A stretch of DNA of 46,688 nucleotides. Source: Candidatus Thorarchaeota archaeon. GTDB taxonomy: Archaea; Asgardarchaeota; Thorarchaeia; Thorarchaeales; Thorarchaeaceae. Position 1 is the first letter of the stretch. Every line of letters begins with the position of its first letter. Below, piece by piece: positions 12,357 to 39,488 of this stretch. A program made the position numbers and the translations under genes. The notes under the pieces are model-generated. The model did not search any database, was not told where the DNA came from, and worked only from the letters and a program-made list of their open reading frames with translations. The stretch spans positions 1 to 46,688 of the forward strand of contig JBHLRZ010000027.1 of assembly GCA_048882045.1 (NCBI GenBank), in the 5' to 3' direction.

Positions 12357-12740
12357 CTAAGGATTGGCAGGTTCGTATCTGCTAGGACATGATGTTAAAA
12401 TCTGAGTTGCTCTGATGAGGCTGGCAGATTCTAGTGTTCCAATCGCTACTATATCTTGACCATCTATGAGATCAGGAACCTCTCCTTCTATTAGAACAAC
12501 AATCGTGTGATTATCACCAGCGAGTAATAATGTCGCATTTTCAAGAGTTATTGACAAAGAACCATTCACATACTCTCCTTTCAGTTGGATTGTGCGGCCC
12601 ATGTAGTTTTCTGGATTCTCAACCACATCATCCACACTTAGATAGGGGTCTACAAACAAATTAAGCATGCCCCACGCCACAAATCCGATTGTCGCACAGA
12701 GAATCACTGTAACCAGTGCCATTCTGGTCTTTTTCTTCAT
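12357..12740 (-). CDS. ccmE: Cytochrome c maturation heme chaperone CcmE, CxxxY variant
   Basis: An N-terminal TM is followed by an OB-fold-like region (YLSVDDV...IQLKG...IVAIG) and C-terminal CPSRY. It sits in a ccm operon. Confidence 0.9.
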   Translation of the reverse strand: MKKKTRMALVTVILCATIGFVAWGMLNLFVDPYLSVDDVVENPENYMGRTIQLKGEYVNGSLSITLENATLLLAGDNHTIVVLIEGEVPDLIDGQDIVAIGTLESASLIRATQILTSCPSRYEPANP

Positions 12741-12742
12741 GT

Positions 12743-12883
12743 CTATTGGTCTCCCTCGACTTGGGATTCGACTATCTTCAAATGCTTCTCAAGACCTATC
12801 ATTCTCAATAGGAGGTATAGGAGAAACGCGAACGTTCCGCCCCAGAAGAGAACGGCGACGATGAATAGTTCAAACTGTTGCAT
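12743..12883 (-). CDS. ccmD: Probable CcmD-like small membrane protein (46 aa, absent from the ORF track)
   Basis: My manual translation is MQQFELFIVAVLFWGGTFAFLLYLLLRMIGLEKHLKIVESQVEGDQ*, a single TM helix plus charged tail. It fills the ccmC-ccmE gap with 5-nt and 2-nt spacers, and GGAG lies upstream. Confidence 0.75.
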   Translation of the reverse strand: MQQFELFIVAVLFWGGTFAFLLYLLLRMIGLEKHLKIVESQVEGDQ

Positions 12884-12888
12884 TATTA

Positions 12889-13563
12889 CTAACTCCTTGA
12901 CATTCTAATCCTCATCAATTTCTCGTGTGCTGTATCTACTCGATAAGTGAGCTCAAGTAAAATCGAAGCCATTAGGGCGACTGCAATCATACTGACCATC
13001 AATGTGATTCCATGTTCCAACCCCATATGGATTCCCCTTTCTTCAATGATGAGAGGATGAAGAGTTTGCCAAATTCGAATTGATAGATAGCTGAGAATCA
13101 CCATTGGGAAGGCGACTATTCCAAAGATGGAACCATACTGAGCTCTTGACTCACGATCAGTCACTGATGCACGGTACACAAGAACACATGCGTATGCAAT
13201 CCAGAGAATTAATGTTGTAGTTTCTCTCGGGTCCCAGTTCCATGGACTATTCCAGGCTGCGCCAGCCCAAATCGAACCACTGATCAAAGTAATCGTTGTA
13301 TAGAAAAGACCTACCTTCACCGATGCGGCCCCAAGCACATCATACTTCATCTCTCCTTTCCAGAGATACAGACCACTACACACAAGGGTCACTCCAAAGG
13401 CTCCATATCCAACTAGGGCTGGGGCTATATGTTGGAAGAATATTCGAATAAGCTCTCCTTGTTCTTGTTCAGGTGGTGCATAAATCCAAGTCATATACAC
13501 ATAGAGTAAAGATAGAGCAGCTGTAAAACCGAAGAAGATCAGTCTTCTGTTACTCACAGTCAA
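12889..13563 (-). CDS. ccmC: Heme exporter / cytochrome c biogenesis protein CcmC
   Basis: It has the Trp-rich WWD loop GSIWAGAAWNSPWNWDPRET, flanking His residues (FQHIA, TLHP) and six TM helices. Confidence 0.93.
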   Translation of the reverse strand: MTVSNRRLIFFGFTAALSLLYVYMTWIYAPPEQEQGELIRIFFQHIAPALVGYGAFGVTLVCSGLYLWKGEMKYDVLGAASVKVGLFYTTITLISGSIWAGAAWNSPWNWDPRETTTLILWIAYACVLVYRASVTDRESRAQYGSIFGIVAFPMVILSYLSIRIWQTLHPLIIEERGIHMGLEHGITLMVSMIAVALMASILLELTYRVDTAHEKLMRIRMSRS

Positions 13564-13625
13564 TCAACTCGAATTGTTCGCGGATGACAAAACTTGCAAT
13601 ATGAAGGTTTTGGAATTAACATCTT

Positions 13626-14309
13626 TCAAGGTGAAAGTGCGAAGTGAAAGACTGAAGCTGAGAGTGTTAACATTGCTATCAGATGCGCCAAAAGAATTCC
13701 GAAAATTGACAGAACAGGAACCAAACCTGGCCCTAGAACTACAATTTTGGTTATCTCAATCAAGAGCATGAGACCTGAGGTAGCAGTCGGGAAATATACC
13801 AGTGGAAACACCGTGGCTTTCGATTCTGAAGGCATAGTTAAAGCTGAAGCCATTGAACCAACTGCCGCCAGGTCTAAGGTTCCCACTAGTAGAGTGGCAA
13901 TCATCAGTGGGAGATCGTTCAGGAACGAAAACCCAAACAGGACAGATATGATAGGTACTAAGAATATCTCAACAAGTCCCATCAGGACAAAGCCATAGAA
14001 AACCTTACCCAAATAAACGGACCATGCAGGAATTGGTGCAGTCGCAAGGCCTCGCAATGTTCCAGTTTCAGACTCGGAAATGAAGATTGGTGAGAATCCA
14101 AACATCCCTGTGAAAAAGATAATCACCCAGAGCATGGCACTCCCGACATCCTGCGGAACCGAGCCTCCAGTCACAAGAGCAAATGAGAATGCTAGGATTG
14201 CGATGAGTGCAAAGAGGAACATCGAGAATGCTTCAAACTTCTTTCGGAACTGAGTAAGGATGTCTTTCTTGGCAATAGCAAATGCTGCTCTTATTCCAGA
14301 AGTCATCAC
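13626..14309 (-). CDS. ccmB: Heme exporter permease CcmB
   Basis: It has AIAKKDI, ESETGTL.GL and VYLGK, about six TM helices, and lies between ccmA and ccmC. Confidence 0.88.
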   Translation of the reverse strand: MMTSGIRAAFAIAKKDILTQFRKKFEAFSMFLFALIAILAFSFALVTGGSVPQDVGSAMLWVIIFFTGMFGFSPIFISESETGTLRGLATAPIPAWSVYLGKVFYGFVLMGLVEIFLVPIISVLFGFSFLNDLPLMIATLLVGTLDLAAVGSMASALTMPSESKATVFPLVYFPTATSGLMLLIEITKIVVLGPGLVPVLSIFGILLAHLIAMLTLSASVFHFALSP

Positions 14310-14315
14310 TTCACC

Positions 14316-15071
14316 TCAGAGTGTCTGATCGAATTCAGAGATAGGACCTTGTGCGACAACGATACCTTTCCTGAGTGTCACAAATTCATCACACAGGTCT
14401 GCACCAAATGCTAGATTGTGTGTGGTCACGATTGTTGTCCTTTTGTTCCGATGCTCTTCTAGATACTCTCTAAAATCAATTGTAGTGTCCCTATCGAGAC
14501 CGCTGAAGGGTTCGTCCAGTAAAAGCAACTCTGGATTGTGAATTAGACTTCTTACAATGTCAAGTCTCTTCTTCAGACCAGTTGACAAATTCTTTACAGG
14601 TTCCTCAAGCCAAGACTTGATAGCAAAATGAGTTGCCAGATCCTCTACTTGGCGCTCGAAGAATCCAGTTTGAAGACCGTATAACTTGGAGTAGAACTGA
14701 AGATTTTCAATACCAGTGAGTTCCTCATATAACAATGGCTTATCTCCAACTAGTCCAAGATGTTTCTTGACTAGTTCAGGTTCTTCCTGGGGATCGTATC
14801 CCATAACCGAGATGGAACCTCCGTGAGGACGAAGTAGTGTTGAAATGACTCGCATGAGTGTTGTTTTTCCAGCTCCATTTGAACCAAATAATCCTTGAAT
14901 CCCACTCTGGGAAAATTCAATGGATACCTCTCTTAGAGCTACCCTGTAGCCATATCTTCGTGTGAGCTCATGTGTCACTACAGCTTTCGTCACTAACTGA
15001 TTCTCCTTTTGGTTCGAGCGAACCCTTTTGGGCTCCCTATTTAATGTGACGCATGAGTATTCAGTGTTCAA
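14316..15071 (-). CDS. ccmA: ABC ATPase CcmA
   Basis: It has Walker A GSNGAGKTT, signature LSTGLKKR, Walker B LLLDEP and H-loop TTH. The true start may be GTG 14990. Confidence 0.88.
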   Translation of the reverse strand: MNTEYSCVTLNREPKRVRSNQKENQLVTKAVVTHELTRRYGYRVALREVSIEFSQSGIQGLFGSNGAGKTTLMRVISTLLRPHGGSISVMGYDPQEEPELVKKHLGLVGDKPLLYEELTGIENLQFYSKLYGLQTGFFERQVEDLATHFAIKSWLEEPVKNLSTGLKKRLDIVRSLIHNPELLLLDEPFSGLDRDTTIDFREYLEEHRNKRTTIVTTHNLAFGADLCDEFVTLRKGIVVAQGPISEFDQTL

Positions 15072-17764: not shown

Positions 17765-17775
17765 CTTATTCACCT

Positions 17776-18186: not shown

Positions 18187-18390
18187 TCTTTTGCCTCCTT
18201 TTGCGAAAGCCAAATTGTTTGGTATGTAGTACACCGAGAATATGATTCATTATGTTTCGAAAATGGATAATCATGATGAGTGGACTTGAGTCTAGAAAAT
18301 ACTAATCTTAAGACTAAATGAAATATGGAATTAGGTTCAATCAAGGTGCTATTCACGCTCGAGTCACATCCAACACTTTGTTCTCCTCCT

Positions 18391-20121: not shown

Positions 20122-20124
20122 ATC

Positions 20125-21303: not shown

Positions 21304-21318
21304 TTCTGAATCTCCTAA

Positions 21319-21822: not shown

Positions 21823-21836
21823 AATTATCACCTACT

Positions 21837-22433: not shown

Positions 22434-22658
22434 ATCTTAGTCACCTAGATTTAGTTACAGAATGTATCTGTTGACTCATTAGACACCATTGTCAAGTTTC
22501 GTTTTGGAATATAAGTCTCATATTTTAGGATATTGGTCAAATAATCGTTTAATCTGGTGTCAATGAAATCATCTGATATACTTCCCATTTGTGTTTGGCT
22601 ACTTCCCCATTACTTCAATGTTTGGTTGCAAAAATCGTTGTCTTATGGATTGATAGGT

Positions 22659-24374: not shown

Positions 24375-25564
24375 TCCTCTGTGTCACCTCCATTCTCCTT
24401 TGATAGTAGGGATTCTGCAACTAATTGAGTGATATCTTGAACCCTCATTTCGTATCCAGTGGTGAATTTGGCCAGTTCAAAACCAAGTATGCATCTTGGA
24501 CACTCGGTCACTACTCTCGTTGCTGGTGTAACAGTCACATCCCTCAAACGCATTTCAGCAATCCTGGATGATAGAACAGGATCCACGACATCTAACAATC
24601 CATGAGAACCGCAACACCTTGTTTGTTCTTTCGAGGGTGTCATCTCAACATTGTAAACTCCTGGGATATCATCAATTATCTCACGTGGGCCTTCTATGAC
24701 TTTTAGGACTCTTGCTGAAATGCAGGGGTCATGAAATGTGACAGTCACCATAGGTTGTTCTTGAAACTTCAAACGCTTTTCGCGAATCAGCTGCTTAATG
24801 AACTGGGACGCTGTCAGTAATTCGAGATTACTCTCCTCCTTGACATACTTACTATATTCCTTCCATGTTTGAATACAGGAGGGACAACTGAATACAACTG
24901 TTTCAACACCAAGACTCAATATCGTTTCGAGATTCTTTTCTGCCATCTCATTGATGCCTTCGAAATTTCCAGCCCATCCTAATGGTGCGCCACAACATAC
25001 CTCCTTGTCTGCGAGTAGTGTATAATCAACTCCAGCATACTCCATGATGGCTACCATTGATTTCGCGATATCATGTAACTGAGTCTTGAGAGCAACATTA
25101 CATCCTGGAAAATACGCAACCTTGGCTGGTTTCAGTATTTTATCCTTTACAACATGCTTGATATCCTCTATCCAAAGGAGTCGGTCCGCAGGTCCCATCC
25201 ACATGATGTCTCCTCTAGATTTGACGGAATCTAACACGAACTGCGCAGGAGTTGGCATAAGCCCGCGTTGTCTAATTTCTGCTCTAGTCACTTCCCAAAA
25301 TCGATCAAGGCTTATACCGGTGGTGCAGACAAAAGTACAATGCTCACAGAGATTACAAAGGAATACTCTACGGGCAAAGTCTTCACCGAATTCAACGTCA
25401 CCTTCTTGGATCGATTTCACAATATGGAGTTTTCCTCGAGGACCATAAGACTCCCACTTGAGCTCTCTAAATATAGGACATACAAGAGTGCAATTTCCGC
25501 ATGAAGCGCAAACATACGGTTCGTCTTCTTGTCCATACTTTTCTAGGAAGTCCTGTTTGGTCAT
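24371..25564 (-). CDS. Fe-S oxidoreductase with CCG domains (GlcF/HdrD-like)
   Basis: Motifs are CASCGNCTLVCP, GPRGK, CNLCEHCTFVC, CCGAP, HDPC, CCGSHG and CPRC. Its stop overlaps the next start. Confidence 0.9.
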   Translation of the reverse strand: MTKQDFLEKYGQEDEPYVCASCGNCTLVCPIFRELKWESYGPRGKLHIVKSIQEGDVEFGEDFARRVFLCNLCEHCTFVCTTGISLDRFWEVTRAEIRQRGLMPTPAQFVLDSVKSRGDIMWMGPADRLLWIEDIKHVVKDKILKPAKVAYFPGCNVALKTQLHDIAKSMVAIMEYAGVDYTLLADKEVCCGAPLGWAGNFEGINEMAEKNLETILSLGVETVVFSCPSCIQTWKEYSKYVKEESNLELLTASQFIKQLIREKRLKFQEQPMVTVTFHDPCISARVLKVIEGPREIIDDIPGVYNVEMTPSKEQTRCCGSHGLLDVVDPVLSSRIAEMRLRDVTVTPATRVVTECPRCILGFELAKFTTGYEMRVQDITQLVAESLLSKENGGDTEE

Positions 25565-25623
25565 TCATTGGTCACCGGGTCAAAGATACCTAATCCAGCT
25601 TGGTACCCTAGAGTATATAGTTA

Positions 25624-25647
25624 TGCCAAGGGCGACGACCCTTGGCA
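25624..25647 (-). terminator. Perfect 9-bp stem-loop just downstream of the 25656 gene
   Basis: The sequence is TGCCAAGGG-CGACGA-CCCTTGGCA. No strong U-tract follows on the minus strand, so the function is uncertain. Confidence 0.4.
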
Positions 25648-25655
25648 ATTTGAGA

Positions 25656-26984
25656 TTATTTGAGGTCTTTAATCATCTCACCAGCACAAGCAATTCCTGA
25701 ACGTGAGGCTGCTTCCATAGATGCATAGTACATGCCGCAGTTTGCATAGGCTCCTGCAACATATAGCCCCTCGATTCCTGTTCGATTTGTGTTCAAACGC
25801 TCATCCATAATGCCGGGTGGCTGTTTTAGAACAGATTTCCAAATCTTCCAGCTTTTTTGCCAAGTGACTTTATCCTTTACTCCAGGAATCAGAATCTCAA
25901 GTTCATCAAGAATAGCCTGAGTAGCCTCCTCGTCACTCATCTTGAGGAGCTCCTTGTCAATTCCTGTGACTGTCAGCAGTGACTCTCCTATCGGAGCAAG
26001 CACTCCAGAAACCCTCTTAGCTTCTGCAACAATGTTGATCTTTCGACCTGGTACAAAAGCGCCAACATTGAAATCGAGTACTCGTGACTTCAGTCCAAAG
26101 TATGCTACAGTTGACGGGGTGTATTCAAACTTGGATATCTTTTCATTGAACTCATTTGGTAAATCGCTCTTCTTCACAAAGTGGTGAATGATATCAATCG
26201 GAGTTGTCAGTACGACAGCATCAGTATCGAGGTGTTTAGTTTCACCGTTCTGTTCGTAGTCCACACCGACAACCTTCCCATCCTCAATAATCACTTGCTG
26301 AACTGCGCAATTGACCTGTGGTTCGACTCCGAAGTTACGGGCTTGGAGCATGAGTGTGTAAGCGACACTTCCCAGACCTCCCCGTTCTGGATACATTGCA
26401 CTAAATCCATCTTCGTAAGCAAATCTCAAGTGTTCAGAATAGAGGTACTGTCCTGCTGACACTTGTGATGGTTCCATGAAGGTCACAGTTCGAATTAGGG
26501 GGTCGTAAAAGTCATTTTGAATTGACTCTGGGATTTTCTTCTCTTGAGCATACTCAGAGAAAGTCATATTGTCTAACTCTTTGAACTCTTCTTCCTTTCT
26601 CTTTATATTCTCTTGAACCAGAAGTCCAAGTCTCGCCCTATCAGCTGTAGGTAACAAACCGAATTTTGCAAGCTCAACTGCAGACTTTCGAATGATGTGT
26701 CTTTCACCATCCTTGAGCCATACTGCACCTTCGCCAACAGTCGTCATCCTCACTCCACTTCGTTCAAGAATTGGAATGAGTGATTTGAAACCACCAACAA
26801 AGAAGTGTAGACCCTGGTCGAAAACATACCCGGACTCAGTGTAAGACCTAGCTCGACCGCCTACAGTCTTTTCTTTCTCGAGTATAGTGCATCGTGCTTT
26901 CAGACCCTTTAGTTCAAGAGCACAGCTGAATCCTGAGATTCCACCACCGACGACTACTACTCGTGTGCCTTTTTCTTTGCTCAT
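25656..26984 (-). CDS. FAD-dependent oxidoreductase, amine oxidase/phytoene desaturase (HpnE-like) family
   Basis: It has the Rossmann motif VVGGGISG, ILEK...GGRARS, GYVFDQGLH, YP.RGG and GLYVAG...SMEAASRSG. Confidence 0.8.
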   Translation of the reverse strand: MSKEKGTRVVVVGGGISGFSCALELKGLKARCTILEKEKTVGGRARSYTESGYVFDQGLHFFVGGFKSLIPILERSGVRMTTVGEGAVWLKDGERHIIRKSAVELAKFGLLPTADRARLGLLVQENIKRKEEEFKELDNMTFSEYAQEKKIPESIQNDFYDPLIRTVTFMEPSQVSAGQYLYSEHLRFAYEDGFSAMYPERGGLGSVAYTLMLQARNFGVEPQVNCAVQQVIIEDGKVVGVDYEQNGETKHLDTDAVVLTTPIDIIHHFVKKSDLPNEFNEKISKFEYTPSTVAYFGLKSRVLDFNVGAFVPGRKINIVAEAKRVSGVLAPIGESLLTVTGIDKELLKMSDEEATQAILDELEILIPGVKDKVTWQKSWKIWKSVLKQPPGIMDERLNTNRTGIEGLYVAGAYANCGMYYASMEAASRSGIACAGEMIKDLK

Positions 26985-27018
26985 AGTTTATCTCTCCATA
27001 CATCCTTGTTAATTTTTA

Positions 27019-28143
27019 CTACTCCTCCACTTGCGAAGCTTGAGCCTTGTCCAGAATCAATTCATCGAGTTGAATCACTTCTAGATTTGTCTCTCTCGCA
27101 TTATAGCTCAGGTTCTTATAGCATGAAACACAGGTGGTGATAATTCCATCGACTCCCAATTCCTCTGCTTCAGCAACTCTTCTCCTACCTACAGATTCCG
27201 CTAATTCAGGATCTAGGACTGATAGGAATCCACCGCAACAGTTACTTTTGTCACGATTATTCTTCAGTTCCACAAATTCCAGTCCTGGTATTGCTCGAAT
27301 AATTTCACGGGGAGCTTCATAAATTCCAAGTGCTCGCCCAAGATGACAACTGTCGTGGAAAGTGTACGTCCCTTCCAGTCCATCGAAAGTAAGAACTCCA
27401 TTTCTCACTTGGTCAGCAAGAACTTCGACAGTATGAAGAATATCAATGTCGAAATCCGGGATTATGTGCGGATAGTGCTCAGCAAGTGTGCCATAACACC
27501 CTCCGCAGGCTGTAACAATATGATCAACACCCGCTTTCTTGAACATTGCATAATTCTTCTTTACAACTTCTTCGAATCCTTTGTCGTCTCCTGCCCAATA
27601 GTTAAACAGACCGCAACAGACCTCACTTGGTACATAGCCTGCGTTTACCTTCAACTTCTGCAACAAGTCAACAACAGTTTCAGGTTGGTCTGGATACCAG
27701 AATGATCCCATGCATCCAGAGAAAATCGCAGTGTTTGACTCGGGTGGGAGTTCCAAATCCTCCGCCCAAATAGTCCTGTCTTCTTGCTCATATCCGACGA
27801 AAGGTGTTCCTTCTTGGGCGATCCATTCGAGAACTTTCTGAAGTGACTCAGCCATTGGAGCTCCAGTCTTCAGGAGCTGGGTCTTTGCATTATGCCAAAT
27901 GTCCGTGACTGGTACACCAGCTGGACAGATTGCTTCACATCTTCGACAGTCTGCACAGTAGAGTCTCTGTAACAGTTCAGCCGGAGGATTTCTCATTTTC
28001 GTGGCGTACGCCCTTAGCGCTCGGAGTTTACCTCCAGGGCTATCGAGTTCTGATTGGAGCTCAATATACATTGGGCAAGTGTCACGACAGTAGTTGCATG
28101 ATCCACAGTTTTTCAGTACGTCTGCTAGATTATCGATATTCAT
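27019..28143 (-). CDS. Fe-S oxidoreductase with CCG domains (GlcF/HdrD-like)
   Basis: Motifs are CGSCNYCRDTCP, CADCRRCEAICP, EVCCG, CGGC, HDSCHLGR, CCGG and CVSC. Confidence 0.9.
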   Translation of the reverse strand: MNIDNLADVLKNCGSCNYCRDTCPMYIELQSELDSPGGKLRALRAYATKMRNPPAELLQRLYCADCRRCEAICPAGVPVTDIWHNAKTQLLKTGAPMAESLQKVLEWIAQEGTPFVGYEQEDRTIWAEDLELPPESNTAIFSGCMGSFWYPDQPETVVDLLQKLKVNAGYVPSEVCCGLFNYWAGDDKGFEEVVKKNYAMFKKAGVDHIVTACGGCYGTLAEHYPHIIPDFDIDILHTVEVLADQVRNGVLTFDGLEGTYTFHDSCHLGRALGIYEAPREIIRAIPGLEFVELKNNRDKSNCCGGFLSVLDPELAESVGRRRVAEAEELGVDGIITTCVSCYKNLSYNARETNLEVIQLDELILDKAQASQVEE

Positions 28144-28152
28144 TGTAGCACC

Positions 28153-29631
28153 TCACTTCCCCACATATCTTGACAATCTTCGAAATGCTGTTGCCAACAT
28201 GAAAAGAATGTCTATTCTCACGAACGATGTTAGACAGCTCGTTACTCTGTCTGGATTCATAATTCCATGTGGGTCCCAATACTCCTTCGCCTCCCTCATC
28301 TGGACCAACCTGTCTGGATAGGCTCGACCCATGTAAATCGAGTTCTGGAGACCAATTGTGTATGGAACACCGCCATTCTTGATTGCCCTCTTCATCATCT
28401 TGTGTAGTATGCCTTTACTAGCAATGAACTTGAGATATTTCCCTGCGTCAATCATTGCCATTAGCTCGAGTCGCATTCTATCTGGAGTACCAAGCATTCC
28501 AAACCAGAGAGCAGGAATCTTGTGTGAGGTCTTGTACGACTCATAGGCCTTCAACATGTCGTATACTTTCTCTATTGGTACCCAGATTTCTTGAAACATC
28601 AATGTTTCAGTATGTTCCTTAGGATTAAACTCAGAATCATATCTGAGAGCCCACTCCTTTTCAGAGAATTCGGTTTCGAGATAGACTCCTCCGTGTTGAA
28701 CAGTAATCGAGCTTAGGTCATCTGTAGGTACCTTGCTTGGAGCATCTACATAAGTTACAGAAATAACGTAGTTCGCATTGTTGAGTGGATTACTATATTT
28801 CTGCAACTCTTGGTCAGCAATCTTCAGATACAATGGTCGTTGCTCCAGGCCAGTAATGTCCTTCAATGCGTTGCAGAGACCTTCCAAGGTATTGAATCCA
28901 TAACTGAATGACTTGTATCCAGTTTCCAGTTCATGTACTCTGAGTTTAACCTCAAATATGACTCCAAGAATCCCGTAGGAATGAAGGAAGAGGTCAATTG
29001 TGTCATCTTCAATGACTTTCGTTGTGCCATCACTGCCAATCACCGAAAGTGAGAGCGTATGTTCTTTGAGAGATCCGTAATAGGGCGTTCCAATCCCACC
29101 ACGACCTCCACATGCGATCCAGCCGCCAATGACTGCTGACTTTGCACTAGAAGGGTAGATTCCCAAGGTAAGCCCCGCTCTTGCCAGTTCTTCATCCAAT
29201 CTCTCGAAGGTGACTCCTGGTTCGACACGGACGAACATCTCGTCTTTGTTTATCTCAAGAACCTTGTTCATCGGTTTGATGTCAAGTGAGATGCCGCCCC
29301 TACTCGGGCTTGAGGATCCCATGCAGCTTGAAGCTCCACCTCTCGGAATAACTGGAATGTTGTGTTCACGAGCAATCTTTAGGACTCCCTCTATCTCACT
29401 AACGTTTTCCACTCTTACTACATAGTCTGCCAGATACTTCCATTTCCATCGATAATGGTATTGTGGGAGGGAAGATGGGTCTCCACTGTATACGACTCTT
29501 TCAAGTTCTGAGTCATTGACTCTTTCATCGGCAACAACAGCCTTGAGTTTATCAAGAACTGTCAGTTCTGTGTATTTCGCATCATCGACAGGAGTTGGTT
29601 CAGGAGTTTTGTTTACTTCAGTTTCTGTCAT
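28153..29631 (-). CDS. FAD-binding oxidoreductase (VAO/GlcD-like), subtype B
   Basis: Motifs are YHYRWK, IPRGGAS, YPSSAKSAVIGGW, YTIGLQN and DPHGIMNP. GAGGTGA precedes ATG 29631; the alternative start is GTG 29640. Confidence 0.87.
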   Translation of the reverse strand: MTETEVNKTPEPTPVDDAKYTELTVLDKLKAVVADERVNDSELERVVYSGDPSSLPQYHYRWKWKYLADYVVRVENVSEIEGVLKIAREHNIPVIPRGGASSCMGSSSPSRGGISLDIKPMNKVLEINKDEMFVRVEPGVTFERLDEELARAGLTLGIYPSSAKSAVIGGWIACGGRGGIGTPYYGSLKEHTLSLSVIGSDGTTKVIEDDTIDLFLHSYGILGVIFEVKLRVHELETGYKSFSYGFNTLEGLCNALKDITGLEQRPLYLKIADQELQKYSNPLNNANYVISVTYVDAPSKVPTDDLSSITVQHGGVYLETEFSEKEWALRYDSEFNPKEHTETLMFQEIWVPIEKVYDMLKAYESYKTSHKIPALWFGMLGTPDRMRLELMAMIDAGKYLKFIASKGILHKMMKRAIKNGGVPYTIGLQNSIYMGRAYPDRLVQMREAKEYWDPHGIMNPDRVTSCLTSFVRIDILFMLATAFRRLSRYVGK

Positions 29632-29641
29632 ATTTGTCACC

Positions 29642-30859
29642 TCACATCACAAAGACTTCTCCAAGATAGATCCCCATGATGCCTAGTATGGTCCAAAGCA
29701 CCACTGCAGGGAGTCCAAGATTACATGTCTTCCATCCTCCCAGATGAGTGAGGAATGCTAGAGTCCCAAGAATCATACTGATGATACCTAACCAGATGTG
29801 CCAAGAGTGGATAAAGAGTAGCATGTTACTCATGTCAATCAGGTATGATGGATTCAACGCAGTCCATGCACCTGCAGGTTCCATGAATAACGAAAGTACA
29901 TTGATTGAGGTCAGTATATACGCGATGCTCAACATGATTCCATGCGCCCGAGTGAATCTTTCTTCATCATAATATTCCAATGCGGTTCCGATATATGCTA
30001 TCACTAGTGCAGGCGCTCCTAAATACCATCCATAATGAAACTGTGGTAGCACAATCGGTTCAACTGGAATTTGTCCAACAACAAATGATTGAATCGGTCC
30101 TACAGCTTCACCAGCAGTGTCGATAGCCACTATTCTCCACAGGATTTCCTGACCATTTGGAAAGTCTCCCGGGATTGTTCCAACGTATTCGTTTCCTCCA
30201 GACAGGCTCATGGAAACATTGGTCCATGAGGTTCCGTTGTCTGTACTATATTGGAGTTTGACCTCCGTTATTGTATCACCCGATGTGATGTTCACAGCTA
30301 CAGTGAAATCTTCACCCGCACGAGGAACCTCAGGTGTCGTCTGCGGCTGTCCAATAGAAGGTCCAGGACCTACCTGGATGACATTAACAGTGATTGGACT
30401 CTGAGTTGAGGACGGGGTGTGTTGGGCTGCATAGACAGTCAGTGTGAACGTTCCCGCAAAAGCAGGCGCTGTAATGCTATACGAAGTCTGAATTGCATTG
30501 CTTGTAGGATTTTGGTCGTTCGCATCATTATCACTGACTAGGCCGGGATCAGACGGTACATTTGGTACAACAATGGTGAAGTCTGAGTTGTCATCCACAT
30601 CATCTGGAATTCTCAACACGAATACATCTGATGCTTGACCAGAAGCTGTCACATCGAGTTGAAATGTTTCACCAGGTTCCACATCAATCGATGAATCCAT
30701 TGTGATCGATAGACCAGTTGGATCATCATGACAACCAGAGTTACCACAGTTGGATTCCGAAGTTCGTGTCGCTACGACATTACCAGCTACAAGAATTAGC
30801 AGTATTGTCGCTGCTACAAAAACTAGGCCAATCTTGACTTTCCTCTTTATGAATGTCAC
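29642..30859 (-). CDS. Fusion of an exported CX4CH heme-c/beta-sandwich domain, an Ig-like domain and a four-TM His-rich cytochrome b-like domain
   Basis: It has a signal peptide, CGNSGCHD, an Ig-like YSTDNGTSW...Y.G.IP segment and TM helices carrying FH, AHG, HSWH and TH. The start is probably GTG 30859 (ORF track gives 30895). Confidence 0.7.
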   Translation of the reverse strand: MTFIKRKVKIGLVFVAATILLILVAGNVVATRTSESNCGNSGCHDDPTGLSITMDSSIDVEPGETFQLDVTASGQASDVFVLRIPDDVDDNSDFTIVVPNVPSDPGLVSDNDANDQNPTSNAIQTSYSITAPAFAGTFTLTVYAAQHTPSSTQSPITVNVIQVGPGPSIGQPQTTPEVPRAGEDFTVAVNITSGDTITEVKLQYSTDNGTSWTNVSMSLSGGNEYVGTIPGDFPNGQEILWRIVAIDTAGEAVGPIQSFVVGQIPVEPIVLPQFHYGWYLGAPALVIAYIGTALEYYDEERFTRAHGIMLSIAYILTSINVLSLFMEPAGAWTALNPSYLIDMSNMLLFIHSWHIWLGIISMILGTLAFLTHLGGWKTCNLGLPAVVLWTILGIMGIYLGEVFVM

Positions 30860-30929
30860 GTGTAGTACACCTTTTCGGAAATATCCCAGATACATCTCCG
30901 GGATACAGCGCCGGTGAGGAAATGACCCT

Positions 30930-31160
30930 GCTTAAAATGTTACTATATGAAAAGGTGTGAATATGCCATCATTGTGAAAGGTTACAAATATAGAGATTAA
31001 CTATAGTGGCAACACAGGATTGTAACCAATACCATAGTGTTTACTTATCAAACTGTAACGATTCGTAGCCGGCCTATAACCGTCCGTAACCAAATGATTA
31101 CATGTTGTAAGATTAAGCTAACAATTGACTATTTCAAATACAACATATTTTTATGCGGGG
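30930..31160. promoter_or_regulatory. Divergent promoter region with repeated GTAAC/GTTAC motifs
   Basis: This AT-rich spacer lies between two cytochrome genes. It has the inverted pair GGTTACAA (30980) / TTGTAACC (31020), phased TAAC-like repeats at 31046-31122 and a TATA-like TTTTTAT at about 31148. Confidence 0.45.
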
Positions 31161-31194
31161 ACCTGCGGGAATTCCTCACCCAAATCTTGGGAAT

Positions 31195-32568
31195 ATGGTG
31201 AAAAAACCAATGGTGTACTACACTGACGAGACCCCAGGGGTCAATAAGCGGTTGGTGGCAGGTTACTACCTGTTCCTCTGCTTGATTGGTTTCGCCATAC
31301 TCTTAGGACCTACTGGATCTGGAATTCCTATCACTACATTAAATGATAGAGTTCGTGAGGCGCATGAACTAGCATATCCGACCTATGGTGATAATGATTC
31401 ATTATCATGCACAGGTACGGGTTGCCATGACGCGACATGGGATTATTGGAATCAGTCAGTCCATTCTGGAAATCTGATTACATATGATCCGATAACAGAT
31501 ACTATCGAGGTTAATGGTCACCGAAACAGGACCATGGCAGAATTCAATGCCACCTGTGCTCAATGTCACGCAATCAACTGGGACAACTCAACATACCCGA
31601 ACACACATGACGGGTTTGGTACCACTTGTTTGATGTGTCATGACACTTCAACACCGTATTTCACGGTTGACGGCGAGAACTGTGCCACTTGCCATATCCA
31701 TGAAGGACATGGTGGCCTCGACGGTTATACCGAATCGGCTCATGCCAACTCACTAACAGATCTCAGAGGTAGCAGCCATGCAGGATCAGACTGTATGCAC
31801 TGTATGTCGGCCGAGGGATTCCTCGACCAAGATGCAGTACTTGACCCTGCTGGTGACTACAGTCCCATTACTTGTCCAACGTGTCACTCTGTACACGACG
31901 CAGATATTGTGAATCCAGCTATGATTCGTGCGGTAAATGCCACAGAACTCTGTGGACTTTGCCACACAGAATCTCGCCATCCCACATATGATGTATGGCG
32001 TGGTGGTGCACATGATCTGACTGGTGTCGTTGAGTGTACCTCCTGTCACGGATATCGTGAGGGATCTCATGGACCTGAGATGAATCACACATTCTCTGTT
32101 TTGCCAGAGGATGCTTGCAATCAGACTGGGTGCCATGATAACAACTTGGAATGGGCTCTTAACCAACTAGAAGAGATCCAGACATCATTTGAGGACCTTG
32201 TAGCTGACTTCGAAGATGAAGCAACAGCTTTCGAAACAGTAGTTACAACCTACAATGCTACTGCAGATGCTGATCATGATCTAGTCGCTGATGTGCTAGA
32301 TATGGTTGATGCGGCATCCACTACTGTAGGCTACTACGGCTACGATGGTTCATCTGGTTTCCATGATCCAACGGAGACCTTCAGTGCTGTGAATGCAGCA
32401 TACAGAGATCTTCTAGATGCAGAGGCATACTTCTATGAGAATATGCCTGAACCTACTCCTACAACTCCCACTGGTGGAGGATTCGACACTCTTGTCGTTG
32501 TAGGTGGAGCTGCTGGCGGTATAGTAGTCGGTCTACTCCTAGGAGTCTTGGTTGGCAGACGTCGATAG
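31195..32568 (+). CDS. Membrane-anchored multiheme c-type cytochrome (up to 9 hemes) with NrfA-superfamily C-terminal core
   Basis: Motifs in order are CTGTGCH, CAQCH, CLMCH, CATCH, CMHCM, CPTCH, CGLCH, CTSCH and CNQTGCH. RHPTYDVW..GAH and DGSSGFHDP resemble NrfA-family segments. Both ends are hydrophobic. The start is uncertain (31153, 31195 or 31210). Confidence 0.9.
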   Translation: MVKKPMVYYTDETPGVNKRLVAGYYLFLCLIGFAILLGPTGSGIPITTLNDRVREAHELAYPTYGDNDSLSCTGTGCHDATWDYWNQSVHSGNLITYDPITDTIEVNGHRNRTMAEFNATCAQCHAINWDNSTYPNTHDGFGTTCLMCHDTSTPYFTVDGENCATCHIHEGHGGLDGYTESAHANSLTDLRGSSHAGSDCMHCMSAEGFLDQDAVLDPAGDYSPITCPTCHSVHDADIVNPAMIRAVNATELCGLCHTESRHPTYDVWRGGAHDLTGVVECTSCHGYREGSHGPEMNHTFSVLPEDACNQTGCHDNNLEWALNQLEEIQTSFEDLVADFEDEATAFETVVTTYNATADADHDLVADVLDMVDAASTTVGYYGYDGSSGFHDPTETFSAVNAAYRDLLDAEAYFYENMPEPTPTTPTGGGFDTLVVVGGAAGGIVVGLLLGVLVGRRR

Positions 32569-32726: not shown

Positions 32727-34901
32727 ATGAAACCAAAAATCATCGTTTCCATCATATTCGCCATCGTGATGTTGAATGCATTGACTCTGGGTGCAAACAT
32801 CACTGCTAGTCCAGAGTATAGTGTAAATCAGATTGAGAATACAAAAGCAACTCTCCTGACACAGGATACTGAGTACAACATCTCTTCATACAGGGACTAT
32901 TCAATAGCTACCATAGACATAATGTTGAGCAATCTTGTGGATATTACCACAGGCGAAGTCTTCCATGCAGGAAGTAGCGATTGGACTGGGGATCCCCTAA
33001 ATACCACCACTCTAGCTAGCTACTACTGGGCCATATCCGCTTTGTCAACTGCATACTACATATCATATAATGAAACTTACCGAATTGCGATGAGTAGGGC
33101 TGCCAGAAAAATGGTAAGCGTATTCATGGATCCAACATATCCTGGTTTTTATGTGAACCAGTTCTCTGGTGAGGAAATTCGACAGACCAAGCGCGCAGGA
33201 GTCCAAGCTTATGCATATTGGGCTCTTGAAACCGCTGAATCCACGAATACTTCTCTCGATTTCACAGTAGAAAAAGAGAGTGCACTGAGGTGTTTGGCTG
33301 ATATCCTCTATGACCCTGTTAATGGAGGTTTCTTCTTCTACACTATGAGGAATGGTTCTTTGAGTGTACCATCGTACTTCGATGAAATTTACCCAAATGA
33401 TGGAAAAAGATTGGATCATCTGGTGCTTGGAGCGACAGTGCTCTATGAAGCTGGTTTATCCTTAGGAAATGCAACGCTTCTGAATATGGCTGACGGAGCT
33501 ATGTCATTCATGCTTTCCCATATGAAGTATTATCATGATATGGAATTTAGAGGGTTCAAGCTATCTGTGAATCGGACAGGTGGGATTGTCAATGTCGCGG
33601 AATATGAAAGAGTCGCTCATTCAGTTGTAACCGATATCAATGCTATGGCGATTAGGGCATTGGTTACGGGATATGAAACTACTGGGAACACAACCTATCT
33701 ATCTGAAGCAAACCAGCTCTTCGAAACCCTGTTTTCAAATAACTGGGATGAGGACTCCGGGGGCTGGTGGGCAGAAGTTGTTGATGGCCAACCATACGAT
33801 CCCCTTGATGACGAGGATGTTAAATTCTACAAATATTCAGAGATTCAGCTCCAGATGATTCTTGCATTGGAAGATTTGTATGAGACAACAGATTCAATAT
33901 ATCCTATCAGAATGGTTATCGATTGTTTTGAGCTCCTTCTAGCAAATCTATGGGATTTTGCTGATGAGGGTTTTGCTAGTAATGGCAATCAGCTTTGGGA
34001 AGCTTTCAGTCCAGATTGGCAGATTCATTATACAACAGTCCAAGCCCAAGCTGTGATTGGTTTGGAGCGAGTATGGAATTACGGATTGCCAATTGTGACT
34101 CGAATAAGAATCACCCCCACAAACCCTCGGCCTGAAGATATTGTATATTTCTCCGTAACAGCTATAGATCCTGATGGCATTGATACAGTATATGTAAATT
34201 ATTCTCTTACTGTTGGAGGAAATGGGACAAGAGGCATTCTCCCACTTTATGCCCATCCAAGCATAGGTGGATTGTTTAACAATTCGATGAAAGATTTTGA
34301 AGATGGTTCTTCAATCAATTTCGAAGTTTTTGCCAATGATACAACGGGTCGTATGTTCGTAGCTGGAAGCTACTATTTTGCAGTCCGTACAGACATATTT
34401 GCCCCTACAGCTGAACTTCATGCTATCTATCCGTCTGATGAAGTGCGCGTAGGTGACAATGTTATAATTGATATGGAAACATATGAATTTCCCGAACATA
34501 GTATAACGAATTCTTGCGTGCTATGGTGGAGGTTGAACACAGCTGCATATACAATCGAGAATATGACTCTAGTTGATATTGAAGGAACTAGGCTAATCTG
34601 GCGAATAATACTCGGGGAATTTTATGCTGGAGATGTAATCACATTCTTCTGTTACGTGACTGATGAATCTGGAAATGTTGGTGAGAGTAGAGTCTATCGA
34701 CTCACTGTACTTGGTCCTCCATTTAACATCACACCGTTTTCAGTCTTTCAGATAGTCGCAACCGTCGGTCTTATAGCTGCGCCTGGAGTTGGTTATGCCT
34801 TTACAAGAATGCGAAAGAATAATCGAGCAGAAGCGCAACGTGATGGGAAGAAAGCTGCGCGAAAGCGAGCAAGACGTCGCGGACCGAGGAGGAGGGCATA
34901 G
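32727..34901 (+). CDS. Exported (alpha/alpha)6-barrel protein (YyaL/AGE-epimerase-like) with Ig-like domains, C-terminal TM and Arg-rich tail
   Basis: It has repeated 'D...GGF' hairpin motifs (DPTYPGFY, DPVNGGFF, DEDSGGWW, DFADEGF), TDINAMAIRAL...TG..TYL, a signal peptide and a TM followed by KKAARKRARRRGPRRRA. Confidence 0.6.
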   Translation: MKPKIIVSIIFAIVMLNALTLGANITASPEYSVNQIENTKATLLTQDTEYNISSYRDYSIATIDIMLSNLVDITTGEVFHAGSSDWTGDPLNTTTLASYYWAISALSTAYYISYNETYRIAMSRAARKMVSVFMDPTYPGFYVNQFSGEEIRQTKRAGVQAYAYWALETAESTNTSLDFTVEKESALRCLADILYDPVNGGFFFYTMRNGSLSVPSYFDEIYPNDGKRLDHLVLGATVLYEAGLSLGNATLLNMADGAMSFMLSHMKYYHDMEFRGFKLSVNRTGGIVNVAEYERVAHSVVTDINAMAIRALVTGYETTGNTTYLSEANQLFETLFSNNWDEDSGGWWAEVVDGQPYDPLDDEDVKFYKYSEIQLQMILALEDLYETTDSIYPIRMVIDCFELLLANLWDFADEGFASNGNQLWEAFSPDWQIHYTTVQAQAVIGLERVWNYGLPIVTRIRITPTNPRPEDIVYFSVTAIDPDGIDTVYVNYSLTVGGNGTRGILPLYAHPSIGGLFNNSMKDFEDGSSINFEVFANDTTGRMFVAGSYYFAVRTDIFAPTAELHAIYPSDEVRVGDNVIIDMETYEFPEHSITNSCVLWWRLNTAAYTIENMTLVDIEGTRLIWRIILGEFYAGDVITFFCYVTDESGNVGESRVYRLTVLGPPFNITPFSVFQIVATVGLIAAPGVGYAFTRMRKNNRAEAQRDGKKAARKRARRRGPRRRA

Positions 34902-34919: not shown

Positions 34920-36986
34920 ATGATGGATATTGGAACAATTCTCATTATTGCTCTAGTCGTAGTCGCGGCTCTAGACGCCGTCATTTTACTACTAGGACCA
35001 AGAATTTCAAATTACGAGAATTACTCATTCATTGCTTCCATAGTTAGTTTTCTAGCTGCACTTGGATTGGTAATTTATCTCGGATCATTAATCTTTGGAA
35101 ACCAATTTCAGTATGACTATGTCTACCAGACAACTGACCTCAGTGCTGATTTTATGTTGAAGATTTCTTCCTTATGGGCTGGACAGTCTGGTTCACTCAT
35201 CTTTTGGACATTCTTGTCCTTCACACTATACTTTGGTTTCAGAGTGGCTACTCGGGGATATGAGGATGACAAACTCGTTTATAGAGCTTCTATAATCATG
35301 GTTTTAGAATCAATCCTGATTGCGATAAACTCATTCATCGCTGATCCTTTCCGGGTTACAACAGAAATAGTACGTACCGACGGTTTAGGTCTGAATCCTC
35401 TACTGTCTACAATTTGGAACGTCATCCACCCACCCATTATCTTCATAGGGTACGCACTAATACTCGTACCATTTTCTGTGAAGCTTGCTGGATTCACACT
35501 ATCCTCTGAAGAACGCAATCAAGATCCTATCCCTGTGGTGAATTCCTATACACGATTCACTACTGCAGCTTCTTGGGTGGCATTGTCATCTGGTATAGCT
35601 ATCGGAGGATATTGGGCATACTTGGTTTTGGGCTGGGGTGGTTATTGGGCTTGGGACCCAGTGGAAACGACATCTCTGATTCCTTGGCTATTGATTACAG
35701 CATTTTATCACGCAAAACCAACACTCAAAAAGAATGACGTGATTCGTGACTCATTCCTTGTTATGGCCTACATCACGGTGATTTTTGCCACGTGGACAAC
35801 AAGAAGTGGTGTACTCTCGTCTGTTCATGGTTTTGGATTAAGCGCAGTGAGTTGGGCAATGTTAGTCACATTACTAGGTAATTTCATTATTGGGGTTTCT
35901 GTCGCACTCTATTCTGGTTTCAAAGGTATGAAAGATGAAGAGGAGTCTATTGGACTCGGGTTCTTAGACATATCAGACATTAGACTTTTCTCAATTAGAA
36001 TCGCACTGATTGGTCTGATTATTGTAGCCGCAACTTCAACTATTGGTGTTGTACTCCCTGCTACATATAATCTGGGAGTAGCAATATTCAATCCGGCAGG
36101 TCTCGAGGACAACATGATTGGGATCGGTATAGACTTCTTTAGAATGGGATTCTATCTAGCCTGTGTCTTCCTGATTCTATCATCGTTTTTCTGCATGAGG
36201 ACAAGTATTCTAACCTATCGTCGTCGAGGATTTCTCGTAGTCATAGTCTTTGGAATAGGTGCAGTAATAGCTGCGCTCGGTGTCTTTGTTGGACCATTAC
36301 CAACGTACTACTGGCCAGCCAATTTCCTTATTGTTCCAGCAGCAGCTGCAATTGGATTTCTTATTGTTGCATTCATATTGAAAATGGCTGGAAAAGAGGA
36401 TATTGGTAGCACCCGTCAAATCGGACGTTTGATGTTACATCTTGGATTAATTATCCTCTTGTTGGGTGTGTTCCTGAGCGAGAATGTGGTATATGAATCC
36501 AATTCGGGATATGTAGAGGGTACCACCCATGATGTTGCACCTGGAATTTCTGTCAGAGTTGCAGACATAAATTTGGAGTACTTCGACAGTCCAGTCGACT
36601 TTAACATGATAGTCACTATTAATGTAGGATACTGGGCTGACAATACCACATTCATAATAACAGGAATAGGATATGCCACGGTCACAGGACATCCTGACTG
36701 GGGTATGGTGAGTCACAATGTGTATTTGGATTCAACAGTTGTCCGAGATGTATTCATCGCTGTAATTGGTTTCGCCCAAATCATACCTGGTTTTTATCAG
36801 GTTACCATCCACGCTAAAGTGCTCCCATTAGTATCCTTTGTCTGGCTAGGAGCTTTCCTCATGGTCTCTGCAATTCTTCCAATTTTCGGAATGGAGGTGC
36901 AATCCTTCATGAAGGCAATGAGAGGGAAACAAAAGCACCTCTACGTTGACGAAGAGGAAGCGCCCATTGAAATTGAAGGTAACTAA
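34920..36986 (+). CDS. ccmF: Cytochrome c heme lyase CcmF
   Basis: Motifs are LWAGQSGSL, GLNPLL, IHPP, LGWGGYWAWDPVET, TRSG..SSVH and HLG, in a protein with many TM helices. Confidence 0.95.
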   Translation: MMDIGTILIIALVVVAALDAVILLLGPRISNYENYSFIASIVSFLAALGLVIYLGSLIFGNQFQYDYVYQTTDLSADFMLKISSLWAGQSGSLIFWTFLSFTLYFGFRVATRGYEDDKLVYRASIIMVLESILIAINSFIADPFRVTTEIVRTDGLGLNPLLSTIWNVIHPPIIFIGYALILVPFSVKLAGFTLSSEERNQDPIPVVNSYTRFTTAASWVALSSGIAIGGYWAYLVLGWGGYWAWDPVETTSLIPWLLITAFYHAKPTLKKNDVIRDSFLVMAYITVIFATWTTRSGVLSSVHGFGLSAVSWAMLVTLLGNFIIGVSVALYSGFKGMKDEEESIGLGFLDISDIRLFSIRIALIGLIIVAATSTIGVVLPATYNLGVAIFNPAGLEDNMIGIGIDFFRMGFYLACVFLILSSFFCMRTSILTYRRRGFLVVIVFGIGAVIAALGVFVGPLPTYYWPANFLIVPAAAAIGFLIVAFILKMAGKEDIGSTRQIGRLMLHLGLIILLLGVFLSENVVYESNSGYVEGTTHDVAPGISVRVADINLEYFDSPVDFNMIVTINVGYWADNTTFIITGIGYATVTGHPDWGMVSHNVYLDSTVVRDVFIAVIGFAQIIPGFYQVTIHAKVLPLVSFVWLGAFLMVSAILPIFGMEVQSFMKAMRGKQKHLYVDEEEAPIEIEGN

Positions 36987-37089: not shown

Positions 37090-38289
37090 ATGAGAATGTC
37101 GCAGCACTATGATGTAGCAGTAGTTGGTTCAGGACCTGCAGGATCTACTACAGCTTGGATTGCTGCGAAGAATGGTCTAAAAACAGTCCTGATTGACCGA
37201 AGGAAGACTATTGGGATTCCAATCCAATGTGGTGAATTGATTCCTACATCAGGAGAAGTGAGGAATCTCTTCCCATCATCACGAACAATGCCAAAGGCTG
37301 TATCAGTACCAAAGAAATTCATTTGCAACAGAACCTCCACGATAAGATTGGTTTCGCCAAACGGTAAGACTTTCGAGTTTCCATTTGAAGCAAACATTGT
37401 TGATCGAGCTGGTTTTGACCAATATTTAGCCCAAAAAGCAAAAGATGCAGGTGTTGATATTCTTCTGAACACCAAGCTGCTGAAAAGAACCAGAGGTAAT
37501 AGCCTAGTACTAAAGACAGAAAGTCAGCAGAATGAAACTCAGGCAAATGTAGTAGTCGGTGCCGATGGCTCGCGTTCCAAGGTGGCAGAATCCTTGGGAA
37601 CTCAGTTCGTTCATGATGAATCTGACCTGAGCCCATCACTTCAATATGTAATGGAAAACTCCGATGTCGATCCTTCAGTTGTCGAGATGTATTTTGGCAG
37701 TGTAGCCCCTGGTGGGTATGCATGGATTATACCAAAGGGTGATGGTCGAGTAAATGTCGGATTTGGTATGCGGAGATTTATTGCCAAGGACGATAAACCT
37801 CTTCGCGAATACATCGACCGTTTTGTCTATCGAAATCCTATTGTTGCACCGCTTTTGGCTCGTGCTAGAATAGTCAGTAGAGTTGGTGCTATTATACCAG
37901 TAGGCGGCCCACTCAAGAGAACTTGGACCAGAAACACACTACTCGTGGGGGATGCTGCTGGGCATGTAATGGCTTCAAATGGCGGAGGTATACCTACTGC
38001 ACTTTGCGGCGGAATCATAGCAGGAGAAACAATCTCAGACCATTTTGAAAAAGAAACATCTCTCTCACATTATGAAGAAACTTGGCGAGTAGAGTTTGGT
38101 ACTGAACTTGAAACTGCACTGAGAGTCCTCAGAGTCGCTGACACTGTAATGCCTTCCGATTCGATAACCGATATCTGCATGAGACTCGCGGGAGTTCGTT
38201 TTTTGGAACCGTTGATAAGATGCAGACTTCCTCCGCTGGTTGATTTTGCTTCAAAGACGCTTGTGAGAATACTTAGTCAATTGCTCTAG
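37090..38289 (+). CDS. Geranylgeranyl reductase family flavoprotein
   Basis: Motifs are VVGSGPAGS, PIQCG, DRAGFDQ, GADG, APGGYAWIIPKG, VGDAAG and GGGI. TTTATAC lies about 40 nt upstream. Confidence 0.9.
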   Translation: MRMSQHYDVAVVGSGPAGSTTAWIAAKNGLKTVLIDRRKTIGIPIQCGELIPTSGEVRNLFPSSRTMPKAVSVPKKFICNRTSTIRLVSPNGKTFEFPFEANIVDRAGFDQYLAQKAKDAGVDILLNTKLLKRTRGNSLVLKTESQQNETQANVVVGADGSRSKVAESLGTQFVHDESDLSPSLQYVMENSDVDPSVVEMYFGSVAPGGYAWIIPKGDGRVNVGFGMRRFIAKDDKPLREYIDRFVYRNPIVAPLLARARIVSRVGAIIPVGGPLKRTWTRNTLLVGDAAGHVMASNGGGIPTALCGGIIAGETISDHFEKETSLSHYEETWRVEFGTELETALRVLRVADTVMPSDSITDICMRLAGVRFLEPLIRCRLPPLVDFASKTLVRILSQLL

Positions 38290-38291
38290 AC

Positions 38292-39332: not shown

Positions 39333-39488
39333 CAGTTAATACTCCTGAGTAGTCTGTTTCAACCTGAAACCGCCTTAAAGTCCTTGCCTTTGTTTTCACA
39401 CATTGTCTAAGGATTGAAACGATGGGGAAGTCTTTTTTGTAAATAGAAAATCGAATAGTCACACGAGGTTGCATTGATGAGCAAGGGA

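Follow-up and report, generated by a model that had tools for sequence, protein, structure and literature searches.

An OcwA-like cytochrome with an unusual fifth motif

The window analysed here is a stretch of 46,688 nucleotides from a Candidatus Thorarchaeota archaeon. On its forward strand, an open reading frame at 31153-32568 encodes a multihaem cytochrome c of 471 amino acids (P0001). On the evidence of its sequence, this protein belongs with the OcwA-like nonahaem cytochromes of the cell surface and is not the nitrite reductase NrfA. We focus on its fifth Cys-pair motif, which has Met in place of the His that follows the second Cys in a canonical CxxCH haem attachment site, and whose sole His stands between the two cysteines. 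As an earlier, sequence-only reading of this DNA had stated, the motif is encoded by TGT ATG CAC TGT ATG at 31792-31806 (+ strand), in the frame of the cytochrome gene, and translates to CMHCM (C214-M215-H216-C217-M218). The features of the gene are as follows.

31153..32568, + strand: gene of the OcwA-like nonahaem cytochrome c, 471 amino acids (from homology, motifs and predicted helices)
31408..31428, + strand: motif 1, CTGTGCH (CX4CH), residue 86
31555..31569, + strand: motif 2, CAQCH, residue 135
31627..31641, + strand: motif 3, CLMCH, residue 159
31681..31695, + strand: motif 4, CATCH, residue 177
31735..31767, + strand: SAHANSLTDLR, residues 195-205 (SAHANSL, 195-201), aligned with OcwA GHATALETLK
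31792..31806, + strand: motif 5, CMHCM, equivalent to OcwA haem 5 and NrfA haem 1
31873..31887, + strand: motif 6, CPTCH, residue 241, then the invariant H248
31951..31965, + strand: motif 7, CGLCH, residue 267
31975..31980, + strand: R275-H276, aligned with OcwA HH 380/381 and with the Gln-His of KMQH-PEYE in NrfA
32035..32049, + strand: motif 8, CTSCH, residue 295
32116..32136, + strand: motif 9, CNQTGCH (CX4CH), residue 322
32344..32370, + strand: DGSSGFHDP, residues 398-406, with the GFH motif of the NrfA/OcwA helical bundle
32491..32559, + strand: C-terminal membrane helix (helix prediction), residues 447-469, then RR

The protein starts with a hydrophobic helix, carries its nine Cys-pair motifs, and continues with a three-helix bundle and a Pro/Thr linker up to the C-terminal membrane helix and a final RRR. 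The hydrophobic helices at its two ends and the RRR would therefore place it outside of the membrane. The surroundings of CMHCM described in the sequence-only reading were all found: SAHANSL before the motif and, after it, four more motifs (the last one being CX4CH, not CxxCH), RHPTYDVW (residues 275-282), GAH (285-287) and DGSSGFHDP. Residues S195, H197, S200, D203 and R205 are invariant in the family alignment presented below, as are D398, S400 and H404. The first motif of the family ranges over CX1-8CH and the last one over CX4-11CH, mostly CX5CH, and this variable spacing implies a permissive haem lyase. A plain count of CxxCH on this protein would give six haems.

Conservation of the CMHCM motif

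A search of 5.8 billion proteins returned 120 homologues, 41-86% identical to the cytochrome and coming from independent metagenomes, with taxon labels Thorarchaeota, Promethearchaeota or Odinarchaeota. About 100 of them have CMHCM in the motif column and about 11 have CMHCQ, with CMHCL, CLHCM and CSHCM found once each; none of the 120 has His or Lys at position 218. The 105 full-length homologues (43-88% identity) were then taken as the family alignment. C214, H216 and C217 are invariant in it, and the two-residue spacing of the Cys pair is exact in all 105, as it is in the 279 domains of the wider alignment described further on. Residue 218 is Met in 94 cases, Gln in 10 and Leu in 1, never His or Lys.

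The nucleotide data agree with this. Contigs from the DNA runs of two studies cover 31740-32200 with zero differences, although the assembly may itself have been built from them. Contigs from RNA libraries of related strains, in two further studies, span the motif too. Their table of differences, which holds the best-supported ones only, gives 31803 T>C, synonymous in the Cys217 codon, and 31811 C>T. We conclude that CMHCM is a genuine and conserved motif, not a sequencing error. Sediment metatranscriptome contigs (runs X6 and X8, two studies) cover 31546-31861 at 85-99% identity. They are a hint of transcription of the family in sediments, but DNA carried over into the libraries may account for them, and we do not claim expression.

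Position of the motif in the OcwA scaffold

The best solved relative of the cytochrome is OcwA from Thermincola potens (PDB 6I5B), with a profile E-value of 1.7e-23. A profile-profile comparison with hhalign (99.3%, E 3.4e-20) pairs motifs 2-9 of the two proteins one to one. OcwA is also the top Foldseek match (E 1.5e-6) of an AlphaFold2 (AF2) model built with the 105 homologues, which has a mean predicted local distance difference test score (pLDDT) of 64.7 and was used for the fold search only; its helices 332-429 have high pLDDT. Both the profile and hhalign lay CMHCMS on CLKCHS of OcwA, CLKCH being the fifth of the nine OcwA motifs, and the flanks H-A-x-x-x-C..C-x-S-x-E-x-F/Y are common to the two proteins. 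Given these shared flanks, position 5 of the motif (residue 218) is expected to occupy the same place beneath the iron as its OcwA counterpart.

In the published structure, haems 5-9 of OcwA superpose on haems 1-5 of NrfA. OcwA haem 5 is five-coordinate and open-sited, with a proximal His and the distal pair HH 380/381, and OcwA reduces nitrite, slowly (PMC6703420). This superposition and our OcwA alignments uphold two proposals of the sequence-only reading, namely that motifs 5-9 form an NrfA-like core, and that CMHCM sits at the position of the catalytic haem (OcwA haem 5, equivalent to NrfA haem 1).

The likeness to OcwA extends to the whole protein: the nine Cys-pair motifs come in the same order, a c554-like module with four haems precedes an NrfA-like module with five, the C-terminal three-helix bundle bears a G(F/V)H motif, and the predicted location is the cell surface. 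A distal His pocket is also common to both, as HH in OcwA and RH in our protein; in the 105 family members, the first column of this pair has Arg in 66 and His in 27, which thus have HH like OcwA, and the second column has His in 85. The differences are several. Unlike OcwA, where motif 5 is CLKCH and holds a His-ligated five-coordinate haem, the Thorarchaeota protein has CMHCM there. It also lacks the beta-sheet insertion that OcwA has between haems 4 and 5. The distal ligand of OcwA haem 9 is a Met, whereas the family has a near-invariant His287 in the aligned stretch. The Cys spacing of motifs 1 and 9 is expanded. Finally, the protein comes from an archaeon, bears a membrane helix at its C-terminus and would depend on a System I maturation without CcmH.

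Distribution of His around the second Cys

A profile search of 1.84 billion cluster representatives gave 2170 relatives, of which the best 150 were used. Sequences aligned to the family profile provided 279 domains with C..C in the motif-5 column. We call x2 the residue before the second Cys (residue 216) and position 5 the residue after it (residue 218). Position 5 is His in 95 domains, and x2 is His in none of these. It is Met in 155 domains, where x2 is His in 144 and Lys in 9. Taken from the other side, the 159 sites with an x2 His have Met (144), Gln (10), Val (2), Leu, Asn or Lys (1 each) at position 5, and never His. Across the 279 domains, therefore, His is found after the second Cys or before it, never both. 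Met accounts for 155 of the 184 non-His residues at position 5.

We compared the His columns of 135 CxHC(non-His) proteins with those of 39 CxxCH proteins. Columns 216 and 218 are the only ones that differ, and the ligand His columns 197, 245, 248, 271, 299, 312, 328 and 404 are common to both classes. In the match columns of this comparison, no displaced His column is lost when His216 appears. His216 is therefore not an obvious replacement of another haem's distal ligand, and a role as distal ligand of a neighbouring haem was discarded, no other His column being lost.

In a tree of 99 sequences, the x2-His and position-5 traits each change at least 10 times. Forms with CxxCH are nested inside the CxHCM clade and have lost the x2 His (CMYCH in P0123, CMSCH in P0143, CVRCH in P0127), and it is likewise absent where position 5 is Lys or Arg (CASCK, CMTCK, CFSCK, CANCR, CMPCR). 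CxxCK and CxxCR occur at this same haem position in wider OcwA-like relatives also (P0228, P0201, P0155, P0237, P0152). The proximal residue of this haem thus varies to an unusual degree over the superfamily, where His, Lys, Arg, Met, Gln, Val, Leu and Asn are all seen. Hodarchaeota contribute CxHCM proteins that are more distantly related. One of the nested proteins, P0123 (484 amino acids, from a Promethearchaeota metagenome-assembled genome, MAG), combines the canonical CMYCH with an Asp-Gln in place of the distal Arg-His; it is a natural counterpart to the CMHCM family for experiments.

A second type of relative consists of giant proteins from metagenomes of the Joint Genome Institute (JGI): P0132 (1622 amino acids), P0133 (1278), P0147 (973) and P0149 (1160). 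They have up to nine tandem modules of 95 amino acids, each of the form CxxCH ... CA(H/K)CM ... CIVCH, and end in an OcwA/NrfA-like bundle and a membrane anchor. The middle place of the module alternates between CAKCM, CAKCH and CAHCM in P0149. A CxxCM site and a canonical haem site can thus take each other's place, an argument for haem binding at the former. Modules with CAKCM always have an extra His about 9 residues upstream, and CAHCM modules are often without it. A search of solved structures with a tandem module of P0133 gave no match that has such a motif.

Gene neighbourhood and cytochrome maturation

The genes that bear on the maturation and function of the cytochrome are listed below.

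12357..15071, - strand: ccmE (CPSRY, CxxxY type), ccmC, ccmB and ccmA
29642..30895, - strand: membrane protein of 417 amino acids, divergent to the cytochrome gene
32727..34901, + strand: exported protein of 724 amino acids, C-terminally anchored, AGE-like (alpha/alpha)6 fold
34920..36986, + strand: CcmF/NrfE-type haem lyase, the only CcmF of the genome

All of CcmA, CcmB, CcmC, CcmE and CcmF are encoded within the window, and the genome, which is 93% complete, has one CcmF and one CcmC; no second lyase was found in it. The cytochrome is by far the most haem-rich protein of this genome and has no paralogue there. In E. coli, a second and dedicated lyase serves the CxxCK of NrfA. The neighbouring CcmF/NrfE was considered as a lyase dedicated to CMHCM, an idea rejected in its simple form since this is the only CcmF of the genome: it must serve CxxCH, CX1-8CH, CX4-11CH and CxHCM sites. 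System I without CcmH is known in archaea (PMC4429474).

Of 37 related loci in MAGs of Thorarchaeota, Hermodarchaeota and Promethearchaeota, about 24 have the genes in the order cytochrome, 724-residue protein, ccmF, often with ccmE-C-B-A behind them. The 724-residue protein has an AGE/cellobiose-epimerase-like fold (Atlas TM 0.8 by the hit). Wherever the cytochrome gene and ccmF were both found (L003-L035), its gene stands between them, down to 44% identity. A role as partner of the cytochrome is conceivable, as is one in helping maturation in this CcmH-less system.

On the other side, the gene of the 417-residue protein adjoins the cytochrome gene in the closer relatives (L004-L017). This protein has an N-terminal CGNSGCH (CX4CH), an immunoglobulin-like middle part and a C-terminal multi-helix membrane domain, and is a likely electron donor to the cytochrome. 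The neighbourhood, with further regions at 16286-29640 (- strand) and 37090-40532, includes genes for flavin adenine dinucleotide (FAD) oxidases (GlcD-like) and CCG/Fe-S proteins (HdrD/GlpC-like), five pairs that are mostly adjacent, and for a polyprenyl synthase, a UbiA prenyltransferase and a geranylgeranyl reductase, for quinone synthesis. To judge by their gene content, the Ccm set, the cytochrome and the FAD/CCG and quinone genes look like one respiratory or extracellular electron-transfer island.

Haem attachment and axial ligand

We propose that CMHCM is probably a genuine, selected variant of the c-type haem attachment site, located at the special haem of the scaffold. Attachment of haem c at C214 and C217 is the part of this proposal that we hold to be very likely; we also hold that its ligation departs from the canonical one. 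The covalent haem would still be carried by the two invariant cysteines. It would be attached by a single Ccm system of the archaeal type (CcmABC, a CxxxY CcmE and CcmF, no CcmH), which would handle the CX4-11CH sites as well. The canonical proximal His would have been given up, with the imidazole placed one residue before the second Cys (His216) instead of after it, and Met218 would stand in the old proximal position.

According to Allen et al. (2005), as cited in PMC4158909, the E. coli Ccm fails on CXXCM, CXXCK and CXXCR. This failure suggests that His216 may supply the imidazole needed by the lyase. We advance as a tentative idea, which we would not call probable, that CxHCM is a new attachment class, in which the move of the lyase imidazole inside the Cys pair frees the proximal position for a Met thioether or a Gln amide. 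The catalytic position would then hold a Met-ligated, open-sited or His/Met-switching haem.

The ligand itself is a separate matter. An axial role for the Met218 thioether, in at least one redox state, comes close to an even chance but stays short of it. In its favour, Met is strongly preferred at position 218, and the residues after the second Cys are conserved with OcwA. That His216 becomes an axial ligand after local remodelling appears rather unlikely. The case where His216 serves only as the lyase imidazole during attachment, the final ligand being Met, Gln or none, is counted within these two estimates. The sequence-only reading had put Met in the role of proximal ligand; this is not established, for residue 218 is also Gln, Val, Leu or Asn, and His216 tracks the loss of the canonical His.

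The distal pocket keeps the catalytic His of NrfA and OcwA (H276). The protein as a whole most likely has the role of OcwA, that of a terminal reductase in extracellular electron transfer, and would receive its electrons from the membrane through the haem c/membrane-helix protein of 417 residues and the FAD/CCG oxidoreductases. Both the homology to OcwA and the surrounding genes suggest an electron path from the membrane to the outside, with this cytochrome at its end. The odd haem would tune the potential or bind a small substrate.

Several observations weigh against this interpretation. The haem core of the AF2 model is poor, with pLDDT below 50 at residues 184-204 and 240-316. The acceptance of Gln, Val, Leu and Asn at position 5 speaks against an obligatory Met ligand. 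The x2 residue of a canonical CxxCH turn has its side chain directed away from the haem of that motif, which speaks against ligation by His216 without a remodelling of the turn. Nine CxKCM and a few CxxC[VL] sites have no His at all in the motif. The His exclusivity is not significant under phylogenetic control: in four well-supported independent pairs, the x2 His moves the opposite way in about three and the same way never, and the sign-test p is at least 0.125. Lastly, the extracellular electron transfer role is drawn from homology and gene neighbourhood only.

Alternative explanations

His216 may instead be the permanent proximal ligand, through a remodelled Cys-x-His-Cys turn, with Met218 as a hydrophobic filler and the haem an ordinary open-sited one. 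This explanation is, on balance, rather unlikely. It agrees with the exclusivity of the two His positions (0 of 95 sites with a canonical His, against 159 x2-His sites) and with an equal count of conserved His in the two classes, no other His column being different. It also agrees with the non-ligating Val and Leu accepted at position 5 besides Gln and Asn, with the Lys/Arg forms having no x2 His, and with the nested CxxCH forms having lost it. However, the conservation of S219, E221 and F223 with OcwA suggests an unchanged backbone, with residue 218 rather than 216 under the iron, and the canonical orientation of x2 is away from the haem. A mere filler would leave the preference for Met unexplained, and the CxKCM sites and the non-significant test of independent contrasts count against this explanation too.

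That motif 5 binds no haem, and is a redox-active disulfide or a Cu/Zn site in an eight-haem cytochrome, is improbable. Cys, His and Met are typical soft-metal ligands, and the His needed by the E. coli Ccm is absent. The MccA lineage did lose haem 5 of this same scaffold, but it ended with eight haems (PMC6703420), whereas here the spacing of the Cys pair is exact in the 105 homologues and the 279 domains. As in OcwA, the flanks of the motif and the His of the distal pocket are preserved; the module place alternates with the canonical CAKCH in the giant relatives, and the same Ccm must already manage the CX4-11CH sites of this very protein.

That the protein is a genuine nitrite reductase forming ammonia (NrfA or ONR), its proximal ligand being exotic, is very improbable, and ammonification of nitrite in the manner of NrfA is unlikely for this protein. 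Pfam model PF02335 does match (41 bits, for a cut-off of 24.1), over residues 274-426 only, and many homologues are annotated 'cytochrome c nitrite reductase subunit c552'. H276 aligns with the catalytic distal His in KMQ-H-PEYE of D. desulfuricans NrfA (1oah), and OcwA itself slowly reduces nitrite. Further likenesses to NrfA are the layout of motifs 5-9, the (K-x-Q-)H-P-x-Y around the catalytic His, the GFH motif of the bundle, and a non-His residue at the proximal position of the core's first haem. But the protein falls far short of the cut-offs of the NrfA equivalog models (TIGR03152, 16.1 bits for 692.5; NF008339, 17.5 for 595), there are nine motifs and not five, four haems being added at the N-terminus, and CxxCK is absent. 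Only T-E-S-R separates CGLCH from H276, a segment of about 55 residues in NrfA having no counterpart, so that the protein lacks the loop in which NrfA has its catalytic Tyr and Ca2+ ligands. The invariant R205 aligns with a Lys in OcwA; its alignment with the catalytic Arg of NrfA is not confident, and their equivalence is not established. Haem 1 of NrfA is bound by CxxCK, or by CxxCH in Campylobacter, and a 2026 paper on the proximal ligand of NrfA considers only Lys and His (PMC13562315). The family differs in having Met or Gln for this Lys or His, plus a His inside the motif, and the genome differs by the lack of a dedicated NrfE-type second lyase. In the upstream part of the profile alignment to 1oah, CMHCM falls on NrfA haem 3 and motif 2 on CWNCK. 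This register was rejected as a motif-to-motif artefact; the OcwA alignment and the published OcwA/NrfA superposition give another one.

Finally, a misreading of a true AAG (Lys) or CAY (His) codon as ATG, of which the sequence-only reading had warned since AAG to ATG takes one base and TGTATG is locally repeated, is hardly conceivable and the warning can be dropped, given more than 100 homologues from independent samples with the same residue and none with His or Lys, the identical DNA contigs, and the RNA-library contigs of relatives that hold the codon while the adjoining one varies synonymously.

Precedent and significance

Like the sequence-only reading, which knew of no precedent for Met at this place, our search of the literature on haem motifs and on Asgard or Thorarchaeota cytochromes found no published description of a natural CXXCM or CxHCM haem motif. 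Other non-canonical haem motifs include CX15CH (MccA), CX3CH and CX4CH (cytochrome c3) and the contracted CXCH of anammox bacteria. The motif studied here resembles these, and the CXXCK of NrfA, in being a variant Cys pair at one special haem of a multihaem protein in the NrfA/octahaem superfamily. It differs from them in having Met (or Gln, Val, Leu) after the second Cys and its sole His between the cysteines; to our knowledge, all described variants keep His or Lys directly after the second Cys. Nor do we know of a Met-ligated or His/Met-switching coordination for any covalently bound catalytic haem. Comparable motif variants elsewhere usually mark catalytic haems (PMC4429474). New in this work are the exclusivity of His at 216 and 218, with its phylogenetic control, the tandem-module relatives, the single CcmF, and the conserved order of the cytochrome, the 724-residue protein and ccmF.

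Throughout the NrfA/octahaem/OcwA superfamily, the chemistry is set by the proximal ligand of the reactive haem, for which the literature discusses only Lys and His. If the idea of a new attachment class is true, CxHCM would be widely used by Asgard archaea and by the giant tandem-module cytochromes. A conserved third solution at the proximal position would offer bioinorganic chemistry a natural coordination not studied before. The motif further puts to the test the rule that the His of CxxCH is required for System I maturation, a single CcmF apparently handling CxxCH, CX4-11CH and CxHCM.

There are consequences for annotation as well. Pipelines that count motifs miss the CMHCM haem, and the 'NrfA nitrite reductase' labels routinely given to homologues in Asgard MAGs probably misassign a nitrogen-cycle capacity to what appears to be an extracellular electron-transfer module. 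For Asgard physiology, the only haem-rich cytochrome of this genome sits together with a whole Ccm system, quinone-synthesis genes and the five FAD/CCG oxidoreductase pairs.

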